Notes under the pieces: model-generated
The model's database searches: none
The model's input: only the letters and a program-made list of their open reading frames with translations
What the model was told of the DNA's origin: nothing
Program-made: the position numbers and the translations under genes
Part shown: piece by piece, positions 6,755 through 24,682 of the stretch
Position numbering within the stretch: position 1 is the stretch's first letter
Layout: every line of letters begins with the position of its first letter
Assembly: GCF_021054785.1 (NCBI RefSeq)
Contig: NZ_CP088239.1
Location: 270,001-302,000 of the forward strand
Source of the DNA: Tannockella kyphosi
GTDB lineage: Bacteria; Bacillota_I; Bacilli_A; Erysipelotrichales; Coprobacillaceae
Direction: 5' to 3'
Length of the DNA stretch: 32,000 nt

Positions 6755-7612
6755 ATGAATATTACAGGACATACAAGATTATTTGGAATAGTAGCTAGAC
6801 CGATACGTCATTCTTTTTCACCAATGATGCATAATCGTGCATTTGATGTATTAGGATTAGATAATATTTATTTAGCTTTTGAAATAGAAGACAATGACTT
6901 AGCATCAGCAATACAAGGATTTCGTGCTTTAGGTGTACAAGGAGCAAATATATCGATGCCTTTTAAACAAGCTATTATACCTTATCTAGATGAATTAGAT
7001 ATCAGTGCAAAGCTATGCAATGCAGTAAATACTATCGTTTTAAAAGATAATAAATATATCGGATATAGTAGTGATGGTTATGGATTTATGGAATCTTTGC
7101 GAGACCAAGGAATAGATTTGGTCGATAAAAAGTTAATGGTAGCAGGTTCTGGTGGTGCTGCACTAGCTATTATTGCACAAGCTAGTCTTGATAAAGTGGG
7201 AGAAATTATTATTTATAAAAGAAGAGTAGAAGAACAAGCATTTATAGATCAAATAAAAGTAATACAAGATTATACAAATGCACATATAGAAATTAAAAAT
7301 ATAGAGGATCAAGAGAGTTTAAAACAGGACCTTGTTTCCACTACTGTTTTTGTGAATGCTACGAGTGTTGGGATGGCACCTAACAGTGATGCTTCTATTA
7401 TTCTTGACAGTAGTTATTTTCATAAGGGATTATGTGTGGTAGATATTATTTATAATCCTTTAGAAACAAAACTATTAAAACAAGCAAAGCAAGCTGGAGC
7501 AAAAACAATGAATGGTAAACCAATGTTACTATTCCAAGGTGCTCGTGCCTTTGAATTATTTACAGGGCAAAAAATGCCTATTGAAGAAATTAAAAAGTTA
7601 ATGGAGATATAA
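6755..7612 (+). CDS. aroE: Shikimate dehydrogenase
   Basis: LFGIVARPIRHSFSPMMHN is the substrate-site motif and VAGSGGAALAI is the NADP Rossmann loop. Start moved to MNITGH (ATG 6755) behind GAGGGA. Confidence 0.85.
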   Translation: MNITGHTRLFGIVARPIRHSFSPMMHNRAFDVLGLDNIYLAFEIEDNDLASAIQGFRALGVQGANISMPFKQAIIPYLDELDISAKLCNAVNTIVLKDNKYIGYSSDGYGFMESLRDQGIDLVDKKLMVAGSGGAALAIIAQASLDKVGEIIIYKRRVEEQAFIDQIKVIQDYTNAHIEIKNIEDQESLKQDLVSTTVFVNATSVGMAPNSDASIILDSSYFHKGLCVVDIIYNPLETKLLKQAKQAGAKTMNGKPMLLFQGARAFELFTGQKMPIEEIKKLMEI

Positions 7613-7613
7613 G

Positions 7614-8201
7614 ATGAAAGAATTAGTAGTAGCATCAACCAATGTAGGAAAAATAAAAGAAATAAAGTCAATGTTAGAACCTTTAGGCATTGAAGTAAAA
7701 AGTATCAAAGATAAATTAGGTAAAGACTTAGATATCATCGAAGATGGTCAAACTTTCAAAGAAAATGCATTAATTAAAGCCCACGCTATTAGTGATATAT
7801 TACAGTTACCTGTTCTAGCAGATGACTCTGGATTAGAAGTAGATGCCATGGATAAACAACCAGGTATTTATTCCGCTCGTTTTCTAGGAAAAGATACTAG
7901 TTATGTAGAAAAAAATCAATATATCATTGATGCAGTCGTTGGAAAAAATAGAACAGCAAGATTTGTATGTGCCATGGCTTTAGTTATTCCAGGACAAGAA
8001 GATATTGTAGTAGAAGAAACAATGGAAGGACTTATCCATGATAAAATAGAAGGAGAAAATGGTTTTGGTTATGACCCAATTTTGTTTTTTCCACCATGTA
8101 ATATGACAAGTGCCATGATGAGTTTAGAAGAAAAAAACAAATACTCTCACCGTGCCAAAGCATTAGCTAAATTACAAGAAAAGATAAAGGAGTTAGGATA
8201 A
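7614..8201 (+). CDS. rdgB: Non-canonical purine NTP pyrophosphatase (RdgB/HAM1, XTP/dITP diphosphatase)
   Basis: VVASTNVGKIKE, DDSGLEVDAM and GFGYDPILF are signatures of this family. The gap after aroE is 1 nt. Confidence 0.9.
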   Translation: MKELVVASTNVGKIKEIKSMLEPLGIEVKSIKDKLGKDLDIIEDGQTFKENALIKAHAISDILQLPVLADDSGLEVDAMDKQPGIYSARFLGKDTSYVEKNQYIIDAVVGKNRTARFVCAMALVIPGQEDIVVEETMEGLIHDKIEGENGFGYDPILFFPPCNMTSAMMSLEEKNKYSHRAKALAKLQEKIKELG

Positions 8202-11678: not shown

Positions 11679-11728
11679 ATAGTAATGATTCCTATTACTA
11701 TAATAACACTAGAATAGAAAAGAGTCAA
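11679..11728 (-). promoter_or_regulatory. Candidate perR-rbr promoter with overlapping palindromic operator
   Basis: In minus sense: TTGACT (11728-11723), 17-nt spacer, TATTAT (11705-11700). It is immediately followed by the perfect inverted repeat ATAGTAAT-N7-ATTACTAT (11701-11679), which covers the predicted transcription start. Confidence 0.45.
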
Positions 11729-12626
11729 ATAAAATCAAACATAAAATAAAAGAAAATATCCCATGATATACTCTTGCAAAAAAATATGTTTTCCAACTAT
11801 AGGGTATTCCTTCTAATAAATTATCCATTTGCATCATCACACTAATACTTCCAAAAGATAATAAAAAACAAATAGCTGCATAAACAATAGGACTAGGATC
11901 TAAACTACTCAGTTGTAAAGCACCACTACTAAACTCCAAAAGACCTTGTATAAAAGATAATATAAAAGGATCTTTTATTAAAAAAGATAAAGCATAACCA
12001 ATAAATTGAAAAACTAACATATATCCTAATATAAAAATAAAAGTATAACAAGAACTCAATAAACTTTGTTTTAAAGCAGAAACAAAACTAACTTTTGGTG
12101 TATTGATTATTTCAAATGACTGTTTTAGTGTTTGGAAAGTCTGTTTTTGACGATAACAAAGAGCTAAAAATATACTAGGTAAAATATGACATACATAAAG
12201 AAGGAATGCATGGTCTATTTTTAAAGAAACAAAAATAAAAGAAAGAGATGCAAAAGAACCAATTGATAAAAGATGTTGTAATTGAGATAAGCTAATATGT
12301 TTTAAAAGATAGGCTTCTTTGATTATTTTAATATTCGTTGGATAACCACAAAAGAAAGTGAGAAAGTATATGGATGACATAGTTGGGGAAAGATGGAATA
12401 AAGGAAGAAATAAATACTGGATTAAATAGCTAAATAATTGTACAATACCTAATGACATACATAAGGATATTAAAATCATAAAAGGTAATAATGAGGGTAA
12501 TAAGTTATCAATGACAATTGTTAGTACAGTAGATGATAATTGAACTATTTGGAACATATTAAAAAAAGAGAAAAAAGTAATGAATATAACTAAACTTATT
12601 GTAAAGTAGTAATTTATTTTTTTCAT
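11709..12626 (-). CDS. Polytopic membrane protein, YlbJ-like nucleoside-recognition (Gate) domain family
   Basis: NLLPSLLPFMILISL...LFLPLFHL...FFCGYPTNIKI resembles the conserved PSLLPFF / PLF / SGYP-GAK blocks of YlbJ. Start set at MKKINYY (ATG 12626) behind GGAGAC. The 165-nt track extension overlaps hflX and has no SD. Confidence 0.5.
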   Translation of the reverse strand: MKKINYYFTISLVIFITFFSFFNMFQIVQLSSTVLTIVIDNLLPSLLPFMILISLCMSLGIVQLFSYLIQYLFLPLFHLSPTMSSIYFLTFFCGYPTNIKIIKEAYLLKHISLSQLQHLLSIGSFASLSFIFVSLKIDHAFLLYVCHILPSIFLALCYRQKQTFQTLKQSFEIINTPKVSFVSALKQSLLSSCYTFIFILGYMLVFQFIGYALSFLIKDPFILSFIQGLLEFSSGALQLSSLDPSPIVYAAICFLLSFGSISVMMQMDNLLEGIPYSWKTYFFARVYHGIFSFILCLILFDSFLF

Positions 12627-12684
12627 AAGTCTCCTTGTAGATAAATAAAGTAAATTCGTGTAAAATAAGCAAGAGGGTGAATAA

Positions 12685-13911
12685 ATGAACGCATTAATAG
12701 TAACAGTAACATATAAATATATGGCATATGATAGTATCAAATCAAAAGAAGAACTTATTTCACTAGCTAATGCTTGTGACATTACAGTCACGAAAGAAGC
12801 TAGTCAAAATTTAGATGCTATTTCCCCAAGTACTTTTGTAGGCTCAGGGAAGTTAGCAGAAATTAAAAATCAATTAACAAATATTGATGTTGTTATTTTT
12901 GATGAAGAATTATCGCCATTACAAATAAAAAATATAACTGATATTTTAGAAATAGAAGTAACAGATCGAACGGACTTAATCCTTCGTATCTTTGAACAAA
13001 GAGCAAAAACCAAAGAAGCAAAGCTACAGGTTAAAATAGCAAAATGTCGATATATGCTACCAAGATTAGCTGGGATGCAAGAACAATTATACGGACAGTT
13101 AGGTGGTTCAGGGTTTAGAGGTAGTGGAGAAAAGAAAATCGAACTTGATCGAAGGGTCTTGCATAACCAATTGCATCAAGCAAATAAAGAATTAGAGAAA
13201 ATTGTGAAACAAAGACAAACACAAAGAAAACAAAGAAAAGATAAAGATAATAAAGTCATTGCACTAGTAGGATATACAAATAGTGGAAAGTCATCACTAT
13301 TAAATAATTTATGCGAAAACAAAGAAAAACATGTCTTACAAAAAGATATGTTATTTGCAACCCTAGAAACAGCAACAAGAAAATGTAAAATAGAAAATCA
13401 TACTTGTTTAGTTAGTGATACGGTAGGATTTATAGACCGTCTACCACATCATTTAATTCAAGCCTTTCGTTCTACCTTAGAAGAAGTAAAAGAAGCAGAT
13501 ATATTAGTTCACGTAGTTGATTCTTCTAATGAACAATGGGAAAAACAAATACAAACAACAAATATGGTACTAAAAGTATTACAAGCAGATAACATTCCCG
13601 TTATTTATGCATATAATAAAGTGGATAAAGATAAATATGCTTTTATTCAAGCATATGAACCAAGTGTATTTATCTCTGTAAAAGAGAATATAAATATAGA
13701 TTTATTAAAAAAAGAAATCGTTACTATTTTATTTAAAGAATATACTGTTTATGATTTACAAATTCCTTATGAAAAAGGAGATGTATATTCTTATTTACAA
13801 CAACATGCAAATGTACTAGATGTTCAATATGGTCAAAACGCTATTTTTGTAAAAGTAGAAGAACATCCTAGTAAAATGAAAGAATTTTTGCAATATAGAA
13901 TACAACATTAG
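12685..13911 (+). CDS. hflX: GTPase HflX
   Basis: An HflX N-domain is followed by G1 GYTNSGKSSLLN, G3 DTVGFI and G4 NKVD. SD is AGAGGGTGA. Confidence 0.9.
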   Translation: MNALIVTVTYKYMAYDSIKSKEELISLANACDITVTKEASQNLDAISPSTFVGSGKLAEIKNQLTNIDVVIFDEELSPLQIKNITDILEIEVTDRTDLILRIFEQRAKTKEAKLQVKIAKCRYMLPRLAGMQEQLYGQLGGSGFRGSGEKKIELDRRVLHNQLHQANKELEKIVKQRQTQRKQRKDKDNKVIALVGYTNSGKSSLLNNLCENKEKHVLQKDMLFATLETATRKCKIENHTCLVSDTVGFIDRLPHHLIQAFRSTLEEVKEADILVHVVDSSNEQWEKQIQTTNMVLKVLQADNIPVIYAYNKVDKDKYAFIQAYEPSVFISVKENINIDLLKKEIVTILFKEYTVYDLQIPYEKGDVYSYLQQHANVLDVQYGQNAIFVKVEEHPSKMKEFLQYRIQH

Positions 13912-19277: not shown

Positions 19278-19312
19278 AATTTAAAGTATATTTATGGTAT
19301 ATTAAGTATAAT
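19278..19312 (+). promoter_or_regulatory. Promoter of the two-component operon with candidate response-regulator box
   Basis: AATTTAAAGTATATTT (19278-19293) is followed 13 nt later by TATAAT (19307-19312). There is no recognisable -35. GTATATT is repeated 11 bp apart (19286-19292 and 19297-19303). The same 16-mer with the same spacing occurs at 21232. Confidence 0.5.
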
Positions 19313-19330
19313 AAAAATGAGGACGAGGAT

Positions 19331-20002
19331 ATGAGACTATTATTATGTGAAGATGAAATACAATTATCAAAAGCATTAGTTGCTATTTTAAAACATAGTA
19401 ACTATTCAATTGATGCTGTATATAATGGACAAAGTGCATTAGAATATTTAGAAACTGAAAATTATGATGTTGTATTATTAGATATTATGATGCCTAAAGT
19501 AGATGGGTTAACGGTATTGAAAGAGTTAAGAAGAAAAGGAAATATGGTTCCTGTTATTATGTTGACTGCTTTAGGGCAAGTGGATGATAAGGTACAAGGA
19601 TTGGATTTAGGGGCGAATGATTATTTAACAAAGCCTTTTGAAACAAAAGAACTATTAGCAAGAATTAGAGCAGTTACTAGAAATCAAGATAGTGCTGCTA
19701 GTTCATTGTTGAAACTAGGGAATGTTACGTTAGATCGAGCATCATTTGAAGTATCATCTCCTTTGTTAACAATCAAATTAGCGAATAAAGAATTTCAAAT
19801 GTTAGAAATGATGATGTTAAATCCTAGATATGTGATTCCTACAGAAAAATTTATGGAAAAAATATGGGGATATGATAGTGATAGTGAATTACAAGTAGTA
19901 TGGGTATGTATTTCTACATTACGAAAGAAACTAATAAATATGGAAGCAAATATACAAATATCAGTAAAAAGAAATACAGGATATTGTTTGGAGGAAAAAT
20001 AA
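19331..20002 (+). CDS. OmpR/PhoB-family response regulator
   Basis: The receiver domain shows LLCEDE, DVVLLDIMMP and LTKPF. The C-terminal winged-helix output domain shows LTIKLANKEFQMLEMMM...VWVCISTLRKK. Confidence 0.9.
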   Translation: MRLLLCEDEIQLSKALVAILKHSNYSIDAVYNGQSALEYLETENYDVVLLDIMMPKVDGLTVLKELRRKGNMVPVIMLTALGQVDDKVQGLDLGANDYLTKPFETKELLARIRAVTRNQDSAASSLLKLGNVTLDRASFEVSSPLLTIKLANKEFQMLEMMMLNPRYVIPTEKFMEKIWGYDSDSELQVVWVCISTLRKKLINMEANIQISVKRNTGYCLEEK

Positions 20003-21199
20003 ATGGAAAAAGCTTTGCGAAAGAAATTTATTTTTATTTCTTTTGGATCTATCTTTATTGTATTAATGGGAATTGCAAGTATTTTAACAATTACCAACTA
20101 CATGACCATGCAAAAAACAGTAGACTCTACCTTACGTATTATTATTGATAATGATGGTATCTTCCCTAGAGACATTAGTCAAGTATCTGAGATGTCTTTG
20201 TCACCGGAAGCTAGTTATACGACACGTTATTTTACAGTATCATTAGATGATAATAATGATGTTTTTATGGTAAATACATCTTATATTCAAGGGGTCACTA
20301 CACAAAATGCAATAGAGTATGTAGAAAGTATTATTGAAAACAATAGTGAACAAGGGACTGTAGACTCTTATAAATATCAGATTGTAACAACAGAAGATAG
20401 TTGCTTATTTGTATTTGTAGATTATAGTCAACAACTAAGTACATTTCAAAGTTATCTAATGAATACGATTGGTATCTGTGCAATAACCTTAATAGGAGTA
20501 TTTATACTATTAGTGCTTTTTTCTAAAAAAGCAACAGAACCAATCATCCAAAGTTATGAAAAACAAAAATTATTTATAACAGATATGTCTCATGAAATTA
20601 AAACACCGTTAGCTATTGTAAAAGCAAATACAGAGGTAATGGAATTAGAATGGGGAGAAACAGAATGGACAAAGAGTACTCATCAACAAGTAAATCATTT
20701 AAATAACTTAGTTAACTCTTTATTATCACTTGCTAAGTTAGAAAAAACAAATGAACTAAAAAAAGAGTTCTCTTTATCTACAACTTTAGAAGAAGTTGCT
20801 GATCCTTATATTATTTTAAGTACCAATATGTCTATTGAATTACATATCGAACAAAATGTAATCTATAAAGGAGATCAACAAGCGATTCGTCAATTAGTAT
20901 CTATTTTATTAGAAAATGCATTAAAATATGGAAAAGAGTTTACTACTATTTCTATTGTTTTAAAAAAAGAAAAAGAGAAATATATTATTGCTTGTCATAA
21001 TGAAGTAGAATATATAGAAATAGGGAAACATGATGATTGGTTTAAAAGGTTTTATCGTGAAGAGTCTTCTAAAAGTAGTGATTTAGAAGGATTTGGAATT
21101 GGTTTAGCGTTAGCTAAATCAATTGTGAAGGATCATAAAGGTCTTATACAGGCTGAGAGTAAGGATCATTATAGTGTTATGTTTATTATTGAATTATAA
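20003..21199 (+). CDS. Sensor histidine kinase (two TM helices, about 130-aa extracytoplasmic loop, HisKA + HATPase_c)
   Basis: H-box FITDMSHEIKTPL, N-box LLENALKYG and G-box GFGIGLALAK. TM helices are at about residues 10-32 and 163-183. The ATG abuts the RR stop. Confidence 0.85.
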   Translation: MEKALRKKFIFISFGSIFIVLMGIASILTITNYMTMQKTVDSTLRIIIDNDGIFPRDISQVSEMSLSPEASYTTRYFTVSLDDNNDVFMVNTSYIQGVTTQNAIEYVESIIENNSEQGTVDSYKYQIVTTEDSCLFVFVDYSQQLSTFQSYLMNTIGICAITLIGVFILLVLFSKKATEPIIQSYEKQKLFITDMSHEIKTPLAIVKANTEVMELEWGETEWTKSTHQQVNHLNNLVNSLLSLAKLEKTNELKKEFSLSTTLEEVADPYIILSTNMSIELHIEQNVIYKGDQQAIRQLVSILLENALKYGKEFTTISIVLKKEKEKYIIACHNEVEYIEIGKHDDWFKRFYREESSKSSDLEGFGIGLALAKSIVKDHKGLIQAESKDHYSVMFIIEL

Positions 21200-21200
21200 G

Positions 21201-21226
21201 GGGATAACAAAAGTTATCCCTTTTTT
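21201..21226 (+). terminator. Intrinsic terminator after the histidine kinase gene
   Basis: GGGATAAC (21201-21208) pairs with GTTATCCC (21213-21220) around loop AAAA. A T6 run follows (21221-21226). Confidence 0.85.
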
Positions 21227-21231
21227 ATGTT

Positions 21232-21266
21232 AATTTAAAGTATATTTTAGGTTAAGGAATTAGAAT
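21232..21266 (+). promoter_or_regulatory. Promoter of the VTC-DUF4956-lipoprotein operon with the same candidate regulator box
   Basis: AATTTAAAGTATATTT (21232-21247) is followed 13 nt later by TAGAAT (21261-21266). There is no recognisable -35. SD AAAGGAG and the ATG at 21298 lie downstream. Confidence 0.5.
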
Positions 21267-21297
21267 GTAGATAGTAAAAGTAAAGGAGTATCAAACA

Positions 21298-22017
21298 ATG
21301 GAAACACAAATGACTTTTAAAAGATATGAGTTAAAATATATTCTAACTAAAAATCAGTATGTTGAATTAAAAGAAATTATGCAAGAATATATGTGTTTGG
21401 ATCAGTTTGGAAAACATACGATACGAACAATTTATTTAGATACACAAGATCATCGTTTGATTCGTCATTCCATAGAAAAACCAACGTATAAAGAAAAGTT
21501 ACGTGTTCGAGCATATGGGGATATTCAAAAAGAAGATGACGTCTTTATTGAATTGAAGAAGAAATATGAAGGAGTTGTTTATAAAAGGAGAATCAGTGTC
21601 CCACAAGAACAAGCTGTTAATTATTTGGAGAATCATGTTCCATTAGCTCAAAAAAATCAAATTACTAGGGAAATTGATTATTTTATAAAATATTATGAGG
21701 GATTGAAACCATCAATGTTATTAAGTTATGATCGAGAAGCTTTTTTTGGTTTAGAGGATGTGAATTTTAGGATGACATTTGATCAAAATGTTTTATCTAG
21801 AGAAGATCATTTATCTTTGTTAGAAGAGGTTTATGGAGATGAACTATTACCAGAGGATACAGTTTTATTAGAAGTTAAAACAACCTATGGATTACCAAGT
21901 TGGTTATTGCATTTTTTTAGTAGTCATCAGTTGTATAAAACTTCATTTTCAAAATATGGAACAGCTTATAAAAAAGTATTGTTCCCAAAAATACAAGGAG
22001 GAGATTTAAATGTTTAG
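21298..22017 (+). CDS. VTC-domain (polyphosphate polymerase-like, triphosphate tunnel metalloenzyme fold) protein
   Basis: FKRYELKYIL (ExK strand), TIYLDTQDHRL, KLRVRAYG, FIELKKK and LLEVKT are the alternating charged beta-strand motifs of the CYTH/VTC tunnel. TIYLDT...LRVR parallels the Vtc4 SIYFDN...LRLR region. The protein is soluble and 239 aa. Confidence 0.75.
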   Translation: METQMTFKRYELKYILTKNQYVELKEIMQEYMCLDQFGKHTIRTIYLDTQDHRLIRHSIEKPTYKEKLRVRAYGDIQKEDDVFIELKKKYEGVVYKRRISVPQEQAVNYLENHVPLAQKNQITREIDYFIKYYEGLKPSMLLSYDREAFFGLEDVNFRMTFDQNVLSREDHLSLLEEVYGDELLPEDTVLLEVKTTYGLPSWLLHFFSSHQLYKTSFSKYGTAYKKVLFPKIQGGDLNV

Positions 22018-22699
22018 TTCTTTATTTACAGGTATCTTTGATACTACATCAACGGTTACAGTTGATTTGTCAGGTTTTTTAATTTGTATGGTAGTAGCGA
22101 TTGTAATTGGTGTCTTTAATGCATGGGTATATACGTTCCAAGGAAAGTATTCAAAGAGTTTTGTGACAACATTAGCGATTATTCCTGCTGTAGTTACAAT
22201 GATTATTATGATGGTAAATGGTAATATTGGTGCTGGAGTTGCAGTAGCAGGTGCGTTTAGTTTAGTACGTTTCCGTTCTGTTCCAGGAACTGCTAAAGAA
22301 ATAGGAGCTATTTTTACTGCAATGGGATCAGGATTAACATTAGGGATGGGTTATATTGCTTTTGCAGTTATTTTTGTTATTTTTGTATCGGCGTTTGAAA
22401 TGATTTTATTCCAATCTTCTTTTGGTGATTATCAAACAAATAAACGTGTTTTAAAGATTACGATACCTGAAGATTTAAATTATACAGATGTGTTTAATGA
22501 TTTATTTAAGAAATATACTTCTTTTTGTGAGTTACATTATGTTAAAACTACGAATATGGGAAGTTTATTTAAATTAAGTTATGAAATTGAATTAAAAAAT
22601 GAAAAAAGAGAAAAAGCTTTTATTGATGCATTACGTTGTAGAAATGGAAATTTAGAAATAGTAATTACTAAAGATATGAATACGGCAGTAGAATTGTAG
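22010..22699 (+). CDS. DUF4956 domain-containing membrane protein
   Basis: About four N-terminal TM helices and the conserved FSLVRFRSVPGTAKEIGAIF segment, followed by a soluble C-terminal half. It overlaps the VTC gene by 8 nt. Confidence 0.7.
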   Translation: MFSSLFTGIFDTTSTVTVDLSGFLICMVVAIVIGVFNAWVYTFQGKYSKSFVTTLAIIPAVVTMIIMMVNGNIGAGVAVAGAFSLVRFRSVPGTAKEIGAIFTAMGSGLTLGMGYIAFAVIFVIFVSAFEMILFQSSFGDYQTNKRVLKITIPEDLNYTDVFNDLFKKYTSFCELHYVKTTNMGSLFKLSYEIELKNEKREKAFIDALRCRNGNLEIVITKDMNTAVEL

Positions 22700-22708
22700 G
22701 TGATTGGT

Positions 22709-24319
22709 ATGTCAAAAGGGAAAATATTGATTTTTATCAGTTTAGCTCTTTGTTTATCGGGATGTAGTTTCGTAGAGAATGTTGTTGATTTAGTATCAGA
22801 AACAGAAATAGAGTTATATAGTGGTGATACAGAAGGATTGTTTTCTGATCGTGATTTGGAGGTTGGTTATGACCTAACAACATGTTCTAATATTGTTTTA
22901 GTAGATGGAGCAAGTAGTAGTGATGATGCTAGTGTTTCTATTAGTGATGATATTATTACGATTAGTGAGGAAGGAACTTATTTTGTTTCAGGGTCGTTAA
23001 GTGATGGACAAATAGTGGTAGATGCTAGTAGTGATGATAAAATACAATTAGTATTAGGTAGTATTTGTATTACTAATCAATCAACGGCAGCAATTAGTAT
23101 TTTACAAGCAGATAAAGTTTTTATTACAATGGTTAGTGGATCATTCAATACACTTGATGTAACAATTGATGAAAGTGTTTCTGTATATGAAGATACGATT
23201 ATTGATGGAGCTATTTTTTCACAAGATGATGTTACCATTAATGGTGATGGACAATTAGTGATTACGACAGTAGATGGAAATGGAATCAGTTCAAAAGATG
23301 ATTTAGTTATCACTAGTGGAACATATGTAATAGAAGCTTCTAATAATGGTTTAGAAGCAAATGATAATTTATTGATAGCTAGTGGTGATTTTACAATTAC
23401 AACTGGCGGAGGTTGGCAAGAAGCTCCAGCAACGACAGCAAGTAGTACTTCAATGATGCCAGGAATGAATTCTAGTAGTAGTTCAAGTAGTAGTTCTTCT
23501 AGTGAAAGTAGTGGGGGAAAAGCGATAGAGAGTGAGACACTTATTTATATTAAAGGTGGGGATTTCTATTTAGATTCTTATGATGATGCGATTCATAGTG
23601 ATTATGAAGTAATTATTGATGATGGAGTATTTGAAATAATGACAGCAGATGATGCGATTCATAGTGAGTTGAATACGGTTATTAATGGAGGTACTATTGA
23701 TATTACGATGTGTTATGAAGGTGTAGAAGGTCAAAATGTATTTATTAATGGTGGTGATGTTTGTATCTATTCTACGGATGATGGAATTAATGTATCACAA
23801 AGTGATGTAGTTGATAATGATGAAGGTATTGCTGTTACTATTACGGGAGGTACTATTTATATTGATAGTAATGATGAAGGTGATGGTATTGATTCGAATG
23901 GAAGTATTTATATAACTGGAGGAATGGTTTTTATTGAGAGTACTGATGTAACAACGGATACTTCTTTAGATTATGAAGAAGATGCTATTATTACGGGAGG
24001 AACTTTTATTGGATTAGGTAGTTCAGGTTTAACAGTGGAAAACTTTAGTGAGACAACACAAGGATCAATGCTTATTGAACTTTCTAGTGTAACTACGGGT
24101 AGTGTTATTTTAGAAGATAGTGATGGGAATGTTATTTTGAGTGTAGAACCTACTAAAACCTATGAAGTTCTTATTATTAGTAGTCCTGATGTGGAAGAAG
24201 GAGAAACGTATTATTTGACAACGGGGACCTCTACACAGACTATTGAAATGTCAGATTTGATTTATGGGGAAAGTAGTTCAAGTAGTCAAAATATTTTTGG
24301 TGGATTTTCAGGAAGATAG
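22709..24319 (+). CDS. Surface lipoprotein with beta-helix repeats (Cthe_2159-type carbohydrate-binding domain family)
   Basis: Signal peptide MSKGKILIFISLALCLSGC with lipobox LSGC. Repeats of the type ITISEEGTYFVSGSLSDGQIVVDA, DDVTINGDGQLVITT, GISSKDDLVITSGTYVIEA, DDAIHS (twice), GGTIYIDSNDEGDGIDSNGSIYITGG. An internal S12-E-S-S linker is present. Start set at ATG 22709 behind AGGTGA. The track start is a GTG at 22700 that abuts the upstream stop. Confidence 0.7.
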   Translation: MSKGKILIFISLALCLSGCSFVENVVDLVSETEIELYSGDTEGLFSDRDLEVGYDLTTCSNIVLVDGASSSDDASVSISDDIITISEEGTYFVSGSLSDGQIVVDASSDDKIQLVLGSICITNQSTAAISILQADKVFITMVSGSFNTLDVTIDESVSVYEDTIIDGAIFSQDDVTINGDGQLVITTVDGNGISSKDDLVITSGTYVIEASNNGLEANDNLLIASGDFTITTGGGWQEAPATTASSTSMMPGMNSSSSSSSSSSSESSGGKAIESETLIYIKGGDFYLDSYDDAIHSDYEVIIDDGVFEIMTADDAIHSELNTVINGGTIDITMCYEGVEGQNVFINGGDVCIYSTDDGINVSQSDVVDNDEGIAVTITGGTIYIDSNDEGDGIDSNGSIYITGGMVFIESTDVTTDTSLDYEEDAIITGGTFIGLGSSGLTVENFSETTQGSMLIELSSVTTGSVILEDSDGNVILSVEPTKTYEVLIISSPDVEEGETYYLTTGTSTQTIEMSDLIYGESSSSSQNIFGGFSGR

Positions 24320-24342
24320 AGAAATATTTCTCTATCTTTTTT
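24315..24342 (+). terminator. Intrinsic terminator after the lipoprotein gene
   Basis: GATAGAGAAA (24315-24324) pairs with TTTCTCTATC (24327-24336), followed by a T6 run (24337-24342). It overlaps the TAG stop. Confidence 0.8.
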
Positions 24343-24425: not shown

Positions 24426-24453
24426 TTGACTTTCCTAAATATTTTAATATAAT
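24426..24453 (+). promoter_or_regulatory. Near-consensus sigma-A promoter of the T-box/argCJB unit
   Basis: TTGACT (24426-24431), 16-nt spacer, TATAAT (24448-24453), preceded by an A/T-rich UP-like tract. Confidence 0.6.
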
Positions 24454-24460
24454 TAAATAA

Positions 24461-24682
24461 ACTTGAGGACTAAAAGAGTACTTATTATGGGAGTTTAAGC
24501 GAGCTAATGATGGTGAGAGGTTAGCACGAAGCAATAAGGAAACGCATTTACGAGAGGGAAGTGGGAAATAAGTATCACTTCAGGGCAATCACCCTTAACG
24601 ATGAAAGAGGTTATACTATCGACGTATAACAACAAGAGTGGTAACGCGGTCATTTCGTCTCTTATTTAAGAGACGTTTTTTT
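24461..24682 (+). promoter_or_regulatory. T-box riboswitch leader with arginine specifier (CGC)
   Basis: Stem I has the AGAGTA S-turn (24475-24480). CTTATT (24481-24486) pairs with AATAAG (24533-24538). Distal elements are AGCGAG and GGTGAGAGG. The specifier loop reads GGAAA-CGC-A (CGC 24543-24545). The T-box sequence is AAGAGTGGTAACGCGG (24634-24649), whose UGGU can pair with ACCA. The terminator is CGTCTCTT / AAGAGACG (24656-24675) plus T7. AAGAG and ACG of the T-box can pair with the CGTCTCTT arm as an antiterminator. Confidence 0.8.

Follow-up and report, generated by a model that had tools for sequence, protein, structure and literature searches.

We analysed a five-gene block in the genome of Tannockella kyphosi, and the results suggested that it might be a signal-controlled module that handles a phosphate polymer at the cell envelope and delivers it outward. 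The block lies in the window, a stretch of 32,000 nucleotides (assembly GCF_021054785.1, contig NZ_CP088239.1, positions 270,001 to 302,000), and window positions are counted from the first letter of that stretch. A response regulator (RR) gene and a sensor histidine kinase (HK) gene form the first unit. The second is an operon for a VTC-domain tunnel protein, a DUF4956 membrane protein and a Cthe_2159-type lipoprotein. As judged from gene order and promoter sites in related genomes, comparison showed the RR/HK pair and the VTC-DUF4956-lipoprotein operon to be one conserved regulatory unit. The module with outward delivery was the best explanation of the data, and we hold it tentatively, with a confidence somewhat short of even. 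Polyphosphate synthesis in bacteria is attributed to PPK1 and PPK2. We know of no explanation of how polyphosphate reaches the bacterial surface or the medium.

Gene neighbourhoods were compared after one genome per species had been scanned with the VTC alignment. At least 583 relatives were obtained, and the synteny counts rest on the best 80 of them, which were 47-58% identical and almost all labelled Clostridia. The gene directly after VTC encoded DUF4956 in 77/77 loci with enough downstream sequence. In 60 of 67 loci, a gene for a Cthe_2159 protein was found no more than 4 kb downstream, and it was directly next in 55. An apparently orthologous RR (E<1e-40) adjoined in 33 of the 49 loci with both flanks present; 17 of these RR genes were upstream in the same orientation, 11 upstream in divergent orientation and 5 downstream. 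The unit was also found in Bacilli, where the HK-RR genes of Paenibacillus were divergent from VTC-DUF4956-Cthe_2159. A start codon giving an 8-nt overlap of VTC and DUF4956 was available in 53 of 79 loci, which is an upper estimate because the choice of start codon favoured that position. Since the two genes were always adjacent and usually overlapping, DUF4956 was shown, at the level of gene arrangement, to be an obligatory partner of the VTC protein. The original prediction had assigned the three operon proteins to the VTC, DUF4956 and Cthe_2159 families and had proposed that their genes and the two-component genes belong together. Profile searches placed the proteins in these families, and the genes occurred together far beyond chance. 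No NCBIfam model matched the three operon proteins. Natural fusions of VTC and DUF4956 were sought as a sign of physical coupling, and none was present among the matches listed. In one protein, P0462 (571 aa), the first 200 residues of VTC were joined to a C-terminal piece of Cthe_2159; the probable cause was loss of DUF4956 by deletion or a chimeric assembly.

The promoters were examined for a common site. The shared 16-mer AATTTAAAGTATATTT had exactly two occurrences in the window, at 19278 and 21232, and it was a portion of a longer site built of 11-bp direct repeats. The core of the site at the VTC promoter was 21232-21253. A weight matrix with the consensus ATTTTTAAGTTCATTTAAGGTT was refined on regions upstream of related loci. 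In 45 of 76 related loci of the VTC-upstream set with which it had been trained, the matrix gave a site that scored higher than the 99th percentile of 743 control upstream regions, and these sites were mostly 57-70 nt ahead of the start codon. Two scans served as independent tests. Upstream of RR genes, matrix sites were found in 16 of 42 loci, where approximately 0.4 were expected. On both strands of the whole window, the top three hits were at 21232 (23.3), 19278 (20.1) and 21221 (18.2), and the fourth-best scored 12.2. A TAnnnT hexamer was located exactly 7 nt past the site in 40 of the 45 loci and at both window promoters. This fixed distance to the -10 hexamer meant that the repeats sit in the -35 region, like pho boxes.

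The repeats also changed with the regulator. RR subtype A was paired with TTTAAG repeats in 28 of 31 loci, and subtype B was paired with TTCAAT-N5-TTCAA repeats in 8 of 11, a pattern present in 0 of the 743 controls. Of the evidence for control of both promoters by the adjacent regulator, this co-variation was the strongest, and the predicted two-component control of the operon was well supported by these comparisons. The claims that both units carry the same promoter motif and are under a dedicated two-component system were supported, in that a conserved candidate operator was located at both promoters and co-varied with the regulator subtype. A second operator type was observed upstream of VTC in loci L016, L031, L042, L051, L057, L065, L067, L068, L069, L073 and L079. 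There, TTCAAT-N5-TTCAAT followed by a CCTCCTGTACAAT-like stretch replaced the TTTAAG repeats.

The two regulatory proteins belonged to the OmpR/PhoB type of two-component systems, with a receiver and winged-helix output in the RR and a HisKA and HATPase_c kinase with an H-box (MSHEIKTPLA) in the HK. Pfam matches of the RR were Response_reg (E=1e-32) and Trans_reg_C (E=1.5e-17). Its acidic pocket EDE was at residues 7-9, and the phospho-acceptor should be the Asp in VVLLDIMMP. Neither the RR nor the HK reached an NCBIfam equivalog cut-off (PhoB, PhoR, RppA, CopR and others). A named identity was rejected for the regulator, the best equivalog being RppA with 207 bits against a cut-off of 250. 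The hydropathy of the HK showed two transmembrane (TM) segments around an acidic extracytoplasmic loop of approximately 118 aa (residues 33-150), which contained 17 Asp and Glu against 5 Lys and Arg. Because the loop was acidic, cations were one candidate signal for the kinase. Pfam matched no sensor domain in this loop and detected no HAMP domain in the HK; HisKA came after the second TM segment.

We then consider the enzyme of the operon. The VTC protein matched Pfam VTC (PF09359) with E=1.2e-44 and 153 bits (cut-off 23), and the match ran from position 1 to position 234 of a profile of 235. A profile of the bacterial homologues found the yeast Vtc4 catalytic domain among PDB sequences at E=2e-9. 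In a Foldseek search of the PDB with an AlphaFold2 model (pLDDT 91.3), the 13 best matches were all tunnel domains of Vtc4, Vtc3 or Vtc2 (E 1e-12 to 1e-10). The top matches were 3g3q/3g3r with TM-scores of 0.69-0.75, and CYTH proteins followed at E 1e-8 or worse. Residues of Vtc4, numbered as in the full-length chain 8i6v_E, were mapped by profile alignment. Identical residues were found in the window protein for R196 (R9), K200 (K13), R264 (R69), R266 (R71), E279 (E85), K281 (K87), K294 (K96), R296 (R98), R361 (R146), R373 (R158), E426 (E192), K428 (K194), S457 (S218) and K458 (K219). All mapped residues but R98 were invariant in bacterial homologues only approximately 25% identical. The sole mapped Vtc4 residue that was not kept was T198, which was Glu (E11) in the window protein. 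By fold and by active-site residues, the enzyme resembled the Vtc4 polymerase more than it did the tunnel enzymes that act as hydrolases or cyclases, which is in line with the tunnel polymerase of the original prediction. We inferred from these alignments that the VTC protein is of the Vtc4 kind and a candidate polyphosphate polymerase.

The family was large, with 5461 clusters at 50% identity, and word-filtered searches with two bacterial VTC members gave approximately 7600-7900 clusters at 90% identity each. The NCBI product name of the homologues was 'polyphosphate polymerase domain-containing protein'. In one homologue, P0454 (351 aa), a receiver-like N-terminal domain (Response_reg E=7.8e-5, below the Pfam cut-off) was fused to the VTC domain, which would place the enzyme itself under phosphorylation control.

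The third operon protein had the N-terminus MSKGKILIFISLALCLSGC with the lipobox LSGC, in agreement with the bacterial lipoprotein signal [LVI][ASTVI][GAS]C. Lipidation is thus a prediction from the motif; a lipobox-like motif was found in 55 of 62 orthologues. The protein matched Pfam Cthe_2159 (PF14262) in three stretches (E=5.5e-62, 209.9 bits), and residues 74-238 aligned to PDB 4peu at E=1.3e-23. The mature lipoprotein of 517 residues contained 92 Asp and Glu against 8 Lys and Arg, with an isoelectric point of 4.05 and a net charge of approximately -84. All 62 orthologues were acidic (62/62), and their net charge per residue had a median of -0.105. The lipoprotein is so acidic that a polyanion cannot be bound through charge. 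The polyanion-binding lipoprotein of the original prediction was contradicted by this composition, in which the orthologues were alike. A reasonable reading of the sequence is that the protein might bind cations, or polyphosphate via Ca2+ or Mg2+ bridges. A Ser run (SSSSSSSSSSSESSGG, residues ~253-268) divided the two beta-helix lobes and may serve as a linker, either flexible or glycosylated.

The wider family was examined for what accompanies the enzyme. The VTC-DUF4956 pair was the constant core and the third partner was variable. In Faecalibacterium-type loci, a NAGPA phosphodiester glycosidase was inserted. In Acetoanaerobium noterae (L089, 8504-10060), a PLD/cardiolipin-synthase-like membrane protein came after RR-HK-VTC-DUF4956 and replaced Cthe_2159. 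A second large subfamily had a fixed CotH-VTC-DUF4956 triplet in glycan loci with glycosyltransferases, Stealth and NAGPA; the triplet was present in 4/4 sampled contigs and on two plasmids. A plasmid of Enterococcus faecalis (LR962858; L090, 7001-12128) carried genes for an amidase, VTC, DUF4956, RR, HK and a CotH lipoprotein, and this locus, in a pathogen that is tractable, is a bridge between the two-component-controlled type and the CotH type. The variable partners that were checked (Cthe_2159, CotH and NAGPA) all had a signal peptide, a lipobox or an N-terminal anchor and were extracytoplasmic. The case for use of the enzyme's product outside the cell rested mainly on this.

NAGPA genes were also observed in or beside modules at L022 (11425-12429), L048, L050, L056, L063, L073 (12503-13639) and L103 (1-1471), and a Stealth-type gene was observed in L104 (3150-4148). 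NAGPA and Stealth are two enzyme families of the eukaryotic mannose-6-phosphate tagging pathway. By analogy, their recurrence gave hints that sugar-phosphate polymers might be concerned.

The membrane partner DUF4956 was examined next to the enzyme. It matched Pfam DUF4956 (PF16316) at residues 31-141 with E=1.4e-11 and 44.8 bits against a cut-off of 30.6. Pfam gave nothing besides PF16316 at E<=10, nor did a separate scan of the C-terminal 89 residues. Its homologues were 59-68% identical, and the protein was more conserved than the enzyme. The alignment showed the signature NGNIGAGVAVAGAFSLVRFRSVPGTAKE followed by GxxxGxG, and the loop RFRSVPGTAKE was conserved. Residues invariant across distant subfamilies included G81, A82, S84, R87, F88 and R89. 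The AlphaFold2 model (pLDDT 73.6) had five helical membrane segments (residues 20-135) and a C-terminal beta-alpha-beta-beta-alpha-beta domain of ACT-like form. By the positive-inside rule, the C-terminal domain and two loops, the one with K46/K49 and the RFR loop, are predicted to be cytoplasmic.

Relatives of DUF4956 were looked for among known membrane proteins. Foldseek found no PDB match at E<=0.001; it gave none for the membrane part and weak ACT-like matches for the tail. When the DUF4956 profile was searched against PDB sequences, Vtc chains were not among the matches even at E<=10. As neither the fold nor the sequence matched Vtc chains, DUF4956 is not a homologue of the VTC channel. 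With a DUF4956 hidden Markov model (HMM), the best match outside the family was E. coli YhiD, an MgtC-family protein, at E=1.3e-4 and collinear; the only other match of YhiD among approximately 3500 open reading frames (ORFs) was a DUF4956 protein. In hhalign, the DUF4956 profile aligned with a profile of ten MgtC proteins at E=2e-4 over 114 columns and the whole membrane domain, with a probability of 46%. Significance was reached only with larger profiles, and against YhiD as a single sequence the alignment fell short of it (E=0.87). The Pfam MgtC model gave no DUF4956 match even at E<=10. A distant relation of DUF4956 to MgtC/SapB is probable but unproven. As far as is known, MgtC proteins act by regulating other membrane proteins.

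These results were assembled into a mechanism. The phosphorylated RR would activate its own operon and the VTC operon. The soluble VTC enzyme would take the gamma-phosphate of a nucleoside triphosphate and lengthen a polyphosphate chain at the membrane. DUF4956 would act as an MgtC-like partner whose basic loop and ACT-like domain, both predicted to be cytoplasmic, keep the enzyme at the membrane, and an oligomer of DUF4956 would hand the polymer to the outer face. Outside, the strongly acidic lipoprotein and Ca2+ or Mg2+ would jointly retain or use the polymer. The place of the lipoprotein would be taken by a CotH kinase or a phosphodiester glycosidase in sister modules. The export step was inferred because the variable partners are extracytoplasmic. 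The wider claim, that bacteria have a polyphosphate route besides PPK1 and PPK2 in which a Vtc4-type polymerase and an MgtC-like partner deliver polymer or phosphoryl groups to the surface, where the users would be CotH kinases, phosphodiester glycosidases or acidic beta-helix lipoproteins, is doubtful at present and should be taken as a minority possibility.

Several points weighed against the assembled mechanism. The membrane helices of DUF4956 were without conserved basic residues, and the conserved basic residues were confined to one loop. The proposal that DUF4956 is an analogue of the VTC membrane channel failed, as there was no sequence or fold similarity to the TM domains of Vtc1 or Vtc4. 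To our knowledge, no transport activity has been shown for MgtC/SapB proteins, and they are not channels. Since these relatives are regulators without shown transport, the reading of DUF4956 as a translocase was weakened. The lipoprotein, with its excess of acidic residues, was far too acidic to bind polyphosphate directly. The enzyme had an invariant E11 at a position that is taken by Thr in Vtc4 and by a metal-binding Glu in hydrolases. The operator matrix was trained on the very VTC-upstream set that it scored, and the RR-upstream and whole-window scans were the independent tests. The searchable literature contained no enzymatic or genetic data on any bacterial VTC protein; for DUF4956, bacterial VTC, and CotH with polyphosphate, it offered gene-neighbourhood remarks and entries in transcriptome tables only.

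The alternative that survived best was that polyphosphate is made in the cell and is not exported, which we regard as possible, on the unlikely side. DUF4956 would anchor or regulate the enzyme in the manner of MgtC, and its ACT-like domain would sense a metabolite. The output would be buffering of ATP, phosphate or Mg2+ on an envelope or cation signal, and the lipoprotein would separately gather divalent cations. MgtC in Salmonella lowers ATP and limits phosphate uptake. The HMM and profile-profile resemblance to MgtC/SapB over the membrane domain is consistent with such a role, as is the architecture shared by DUF4956 and MgtC, in which a C-terminal alpha/beta domain accompanies the membrane domain. 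The lipoprotein and the outer loop of the kinase were both strongly acidic. For a streptococcal homologue, an ACT domain was predicted and polyphosphate was suggested to stay cytoplasmic (bioRxiv 10.1101/2024.04.20.589940). However, synthesis confined to the cell leaves unexplained the constant pairing with Cthe_2159, CotH and NAGPA, which are extracytoplasmic proteins of phosphate and glycan chemistry, and the homology to MgtC was moderate by the profile probability, the Pfam MgtC model being without a match.

It is improbable, though to be taken seriously, that the VTC-domain protein is a tunnel hydrolase or cyclase, such as a tripolyphosphatase or NTPase, whose activity is controlled by DUF4956. 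Hydrolases and cyclases make up the majority of the bacterial tunnel enzymes that have been characterised, and some VTC homologues had a precomputed CYTH Pfam match besides. In hydrolase and cyclase tunnel enzymes, glutamates hold a second, water-activating metal, and Vtc4 has basic residues in their place that guide the growing chain, with K458 as the catalytic residue (Martinez et al., PMC4641920). The same study reported that AtTTM3 has a Vtc4-like tunnel centre but hydrolyses tripolyphosphate only, which favours a hydrolase. The equivalents of E2 and E171 of AtTTM3 at metal site 2 were Arg9 and Lys194 in the window protein, as in Vtc4. The equivalent of AtTTM3 E4 was the invariant Glu11 (Thr in Vtc4). 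All these equivalences were read from an alignment of strand motifs without structural superposition, in which the E90 equivalent was not confidently mapped. E11 occupied a metal-binding position of hydrolases, but the other two site-2 glutamates were Arg and Lys, and because of this replacement the water-activating metal site described in PMC4641920 probably cannot form in the fashion of hydrolases. The equivalent of the catalytic Lys458 and the neighbouring Ser were invariant, and sequence and fold placed Vtc4 well ahead of CYTH proteins. With R9 and K194 basic as in Vtc4 and Glu at E11, the active site was polymerase-like with one bacterial peculiarity.

That the five genes are mere neighbours without joint function and the 16-mer is a chance match in AT-rich DNA is extremely improbable: with at most two mismatches allowed, 17 of 100 window shuffles had at least two matches to the 16-mer, but the synteny was kept over 80 species-level genomes and in Bacilli, and the operator was conserved in sequence, position and spacing and co-varied with the regulator subtype.

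The features of the block are collected in the table. The five gene positions, both terminators, the overlap, the gap, the lipobox and the quoted peptide motifs were all found where the original prediction had put them.

Table. Features of the two-component and VTC-DUF4956-lipoprotein block in the window
Feature	Position	Strand	Basis or detail
Candidate RR operator, RR/HK promoter: two 11-bp direct repeats AATTTAAAGTA TATTTATGGTA	19278-19299	+	matrix score 20.1
-10 hexamer TATAAT of RR/HK promoter	19307-19312	+	exactly 7 nt past operator
RR, OmpR/PhoB-type response regulator, 223 aa	19331-20002	+	ORF list, Pfam
HK, sensor histidine kinase, 398 aa	20003-21199	+	ORF list, Pfam
Intrinsic terminator closing RR/HK unit	21198-21229	+	11-bp stem then T-run
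Candidate RR operator, VTC promoter: three 11-bp repeats TTTTTTATGTT AATTTAAAGTA TATTTTAGGTT	21221-21253	+	matrix
-10 hexamer TAGAAT of VTC operon promoter	21261-21266	+	exactly 7 nt past operator
VTC-domain triphosphate-tunnel protein, soluble, 239 aa	21298-22017	+	ORF list, Pfam
DUF4956 membrane protein, 229 aa	22010-22699	+	ORF list, Pfam
Cthe_2159-type beta-helix lipoprotein, 536 aa	22709-24319 from ATG	+	ORF list, Pfam
AT-rich intrinsic terminator closing VTC operon	24312-24342	+	12-bp stem then T-run

In the window, the VTC and DUF4956 genes overlapped by 8 nt. The gap between DUF4956 and the lipoprotein was 9 nt, and the mechanical ORF of the lipoprotein began at GTG 22700. The terminator of the RR/HK unit, taken as 21198-21223, gave -14.0 kcal/mol (z -3.8), and 0 of 200 shuffles folded equally well; that of the VTC operon, taken as 24312-24339, gave -13.5 kcal/mol (z -5.1). 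Metagenome contigs from five samples carried the same five genes with identical protein lengths. A PADLOC search for anti-phage defence gave no match for the three operon proteins.

The block was flanked on the left by argF, a Mur ligase gene, argH and argG, and on the right by a T-box followed by argC, argJ and argB. ORF annotation and Rfam thus bore out the arginine-gene flanks that had been described. The T-box leader was Rfam RF00230 (120.7 bits, 24457-24665). Its own terminator hairpin was located at 24656-24675, ahead of argC, argJ and argB, and a near-consensus sigma-70-type promoter (TTGACT, 16 nt, TATAAT; 24426-24453) was observed upstream. The G+C content was 0.27-0.33 across the block against 0.25-0.35 in the rest of the window, without compositional anomaly, and no mobile-element genes were seen among the annotated window ORFs. 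The block sits between divergent arginine operons, and the G+C content neither marked it as foreign nor spoke against the accessory insertion of the original prediction. Elsewhere in the window, a 360-aa ORF without a Pfam match was observed on the minus strand at 11709-12791. It overlapped approximately 100 nt of the start of an HflX-type GTPase gene (12685-13911, plus strand) and may be spurious or mis-started.

If outward delivery is true, polyphosphate export would have its first dedicated system in bacteria. The space outside the cell, where ATP is absent, would gain a supply of high-energy phosphate, and across a large clade of gut Clostridia a dedicated sensor kinase would turn the module on. 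Polymerase activity, if true, would mean a new enzyme class in bacterial phosphate metabolism and a role for DUF4956. It might also throw light on MgtC-type proteins and would offer a candidate phosphoryl donor for secreted CotH kinases. If the enzyme had hydrolase activity only, the NCBI name of its homologues would need correcting. The question is directly testable in cultured carriers because of the strict pairing with the membrane partner and the recognisable regulator and operator. Such carriers are Roseburia inulinivorans DSM 16841 (L077), Anaerovorax odorimutans, Clostridium culturomicium and, with its plasmid locus, Enterococcus faecalis. The naming of homologues by NCBI is already known, as is the group of cotH, polyphosphate polymerase and DUF4956 genes, which was noted beside Gram-positive pel operons (PMC7112168; bioRxiv 10.1101/2024.04.20.589940). 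For the two-component-controlled Cthe_2159 form, its operator, the link to MgtC and the acidity of the lipoprotein, no description was found in the searchable literature.

The module was compared with known systems. The CotH loci of Pel and other exopolysaccharides have the same obligatory VTC-DUF4956 pair plus an extracytoplasmic third protein, and they are likewise known from genes alone. They differ in the VTC protein, which is approximately 25% identical, in having a CotH kinase instead of Cthe_2159, and in the glycosyltransferase clusters around them; no dedicated two-component system was seen in the loci examined. Cthe_2159 of Clostridium thermocellum (PDB 4PEU/4PHB) shares the Pfam family with the window lipoprotein, which aligned to the solved structure. 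For Cthe_2159, a PL9-like beta-helix with binding to cellulose and polygalacturonate is reported (PMC6712302). The window protein differs in being two-lobed, extremely acidic, lipid-anchored by prediction and tied to VTC-DUF4956.

The promoters resembled the pho-box promoters of PhoB/PhoR, an example of class II activation in the OmpR family. In both, the -35 element gives way to direct repeats of 11-bp period whose distance from the -10 element is fixed, and the promoter of the regulator itself bears the site. However, the window repeats are of the TTTAAGGTT type and not the pho box, and the RR and HK were below the PhoB/PhoR equivalog cut-offs. DUF4956 and the MgtC/SapB proteins (PF02308; Salmonella MgtC, E. 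coli YhiD) agree in size, in an N-terminal multi-helix membrane domain and in a C-terminal alpha/beta ACT-like domain, and their alignment was collinear through the Gly-rich helices. In contrast, the N-terminal ER motif of MgtC was not in DUF4956, the invariant RFR loop was DUF4956's own, and the similarity was weak (E ~1e-4, 46% profile probability).

With PPK1 and PPK2, the VTC enzyme would share the product, polyphosphate from a nucleoside triphosphate, if our reading of it holds. Fold and mechanism are unrelated, and no PPK assignment was made for the window genes. The eukaryotic VTC complex (Vtc4 with the Vtc1/Vtc3/Vtc4 channel; PDB 3G3Q, 7YTJ, 8I6V) has the same Pfam family and tunnel fold, nearly all of the same catalytic and chain-guiding residues, and an enzyme linked to a membrane protein. 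However, the window enzyme is free and soluble, ending at residue 239 without fused TM helices, and it has Glu in place of T198. Its partner DUF4956 is unrelated to the TM domains of the solved VTC complexes, and Pfam found no SPX domain in any of the five window proteins. Control is also different. The yeast VTC complex is controlled via the binding of inositol pyrophosphates to SPX, whereas the window module would be controlled transcriptionally via its two-component system.

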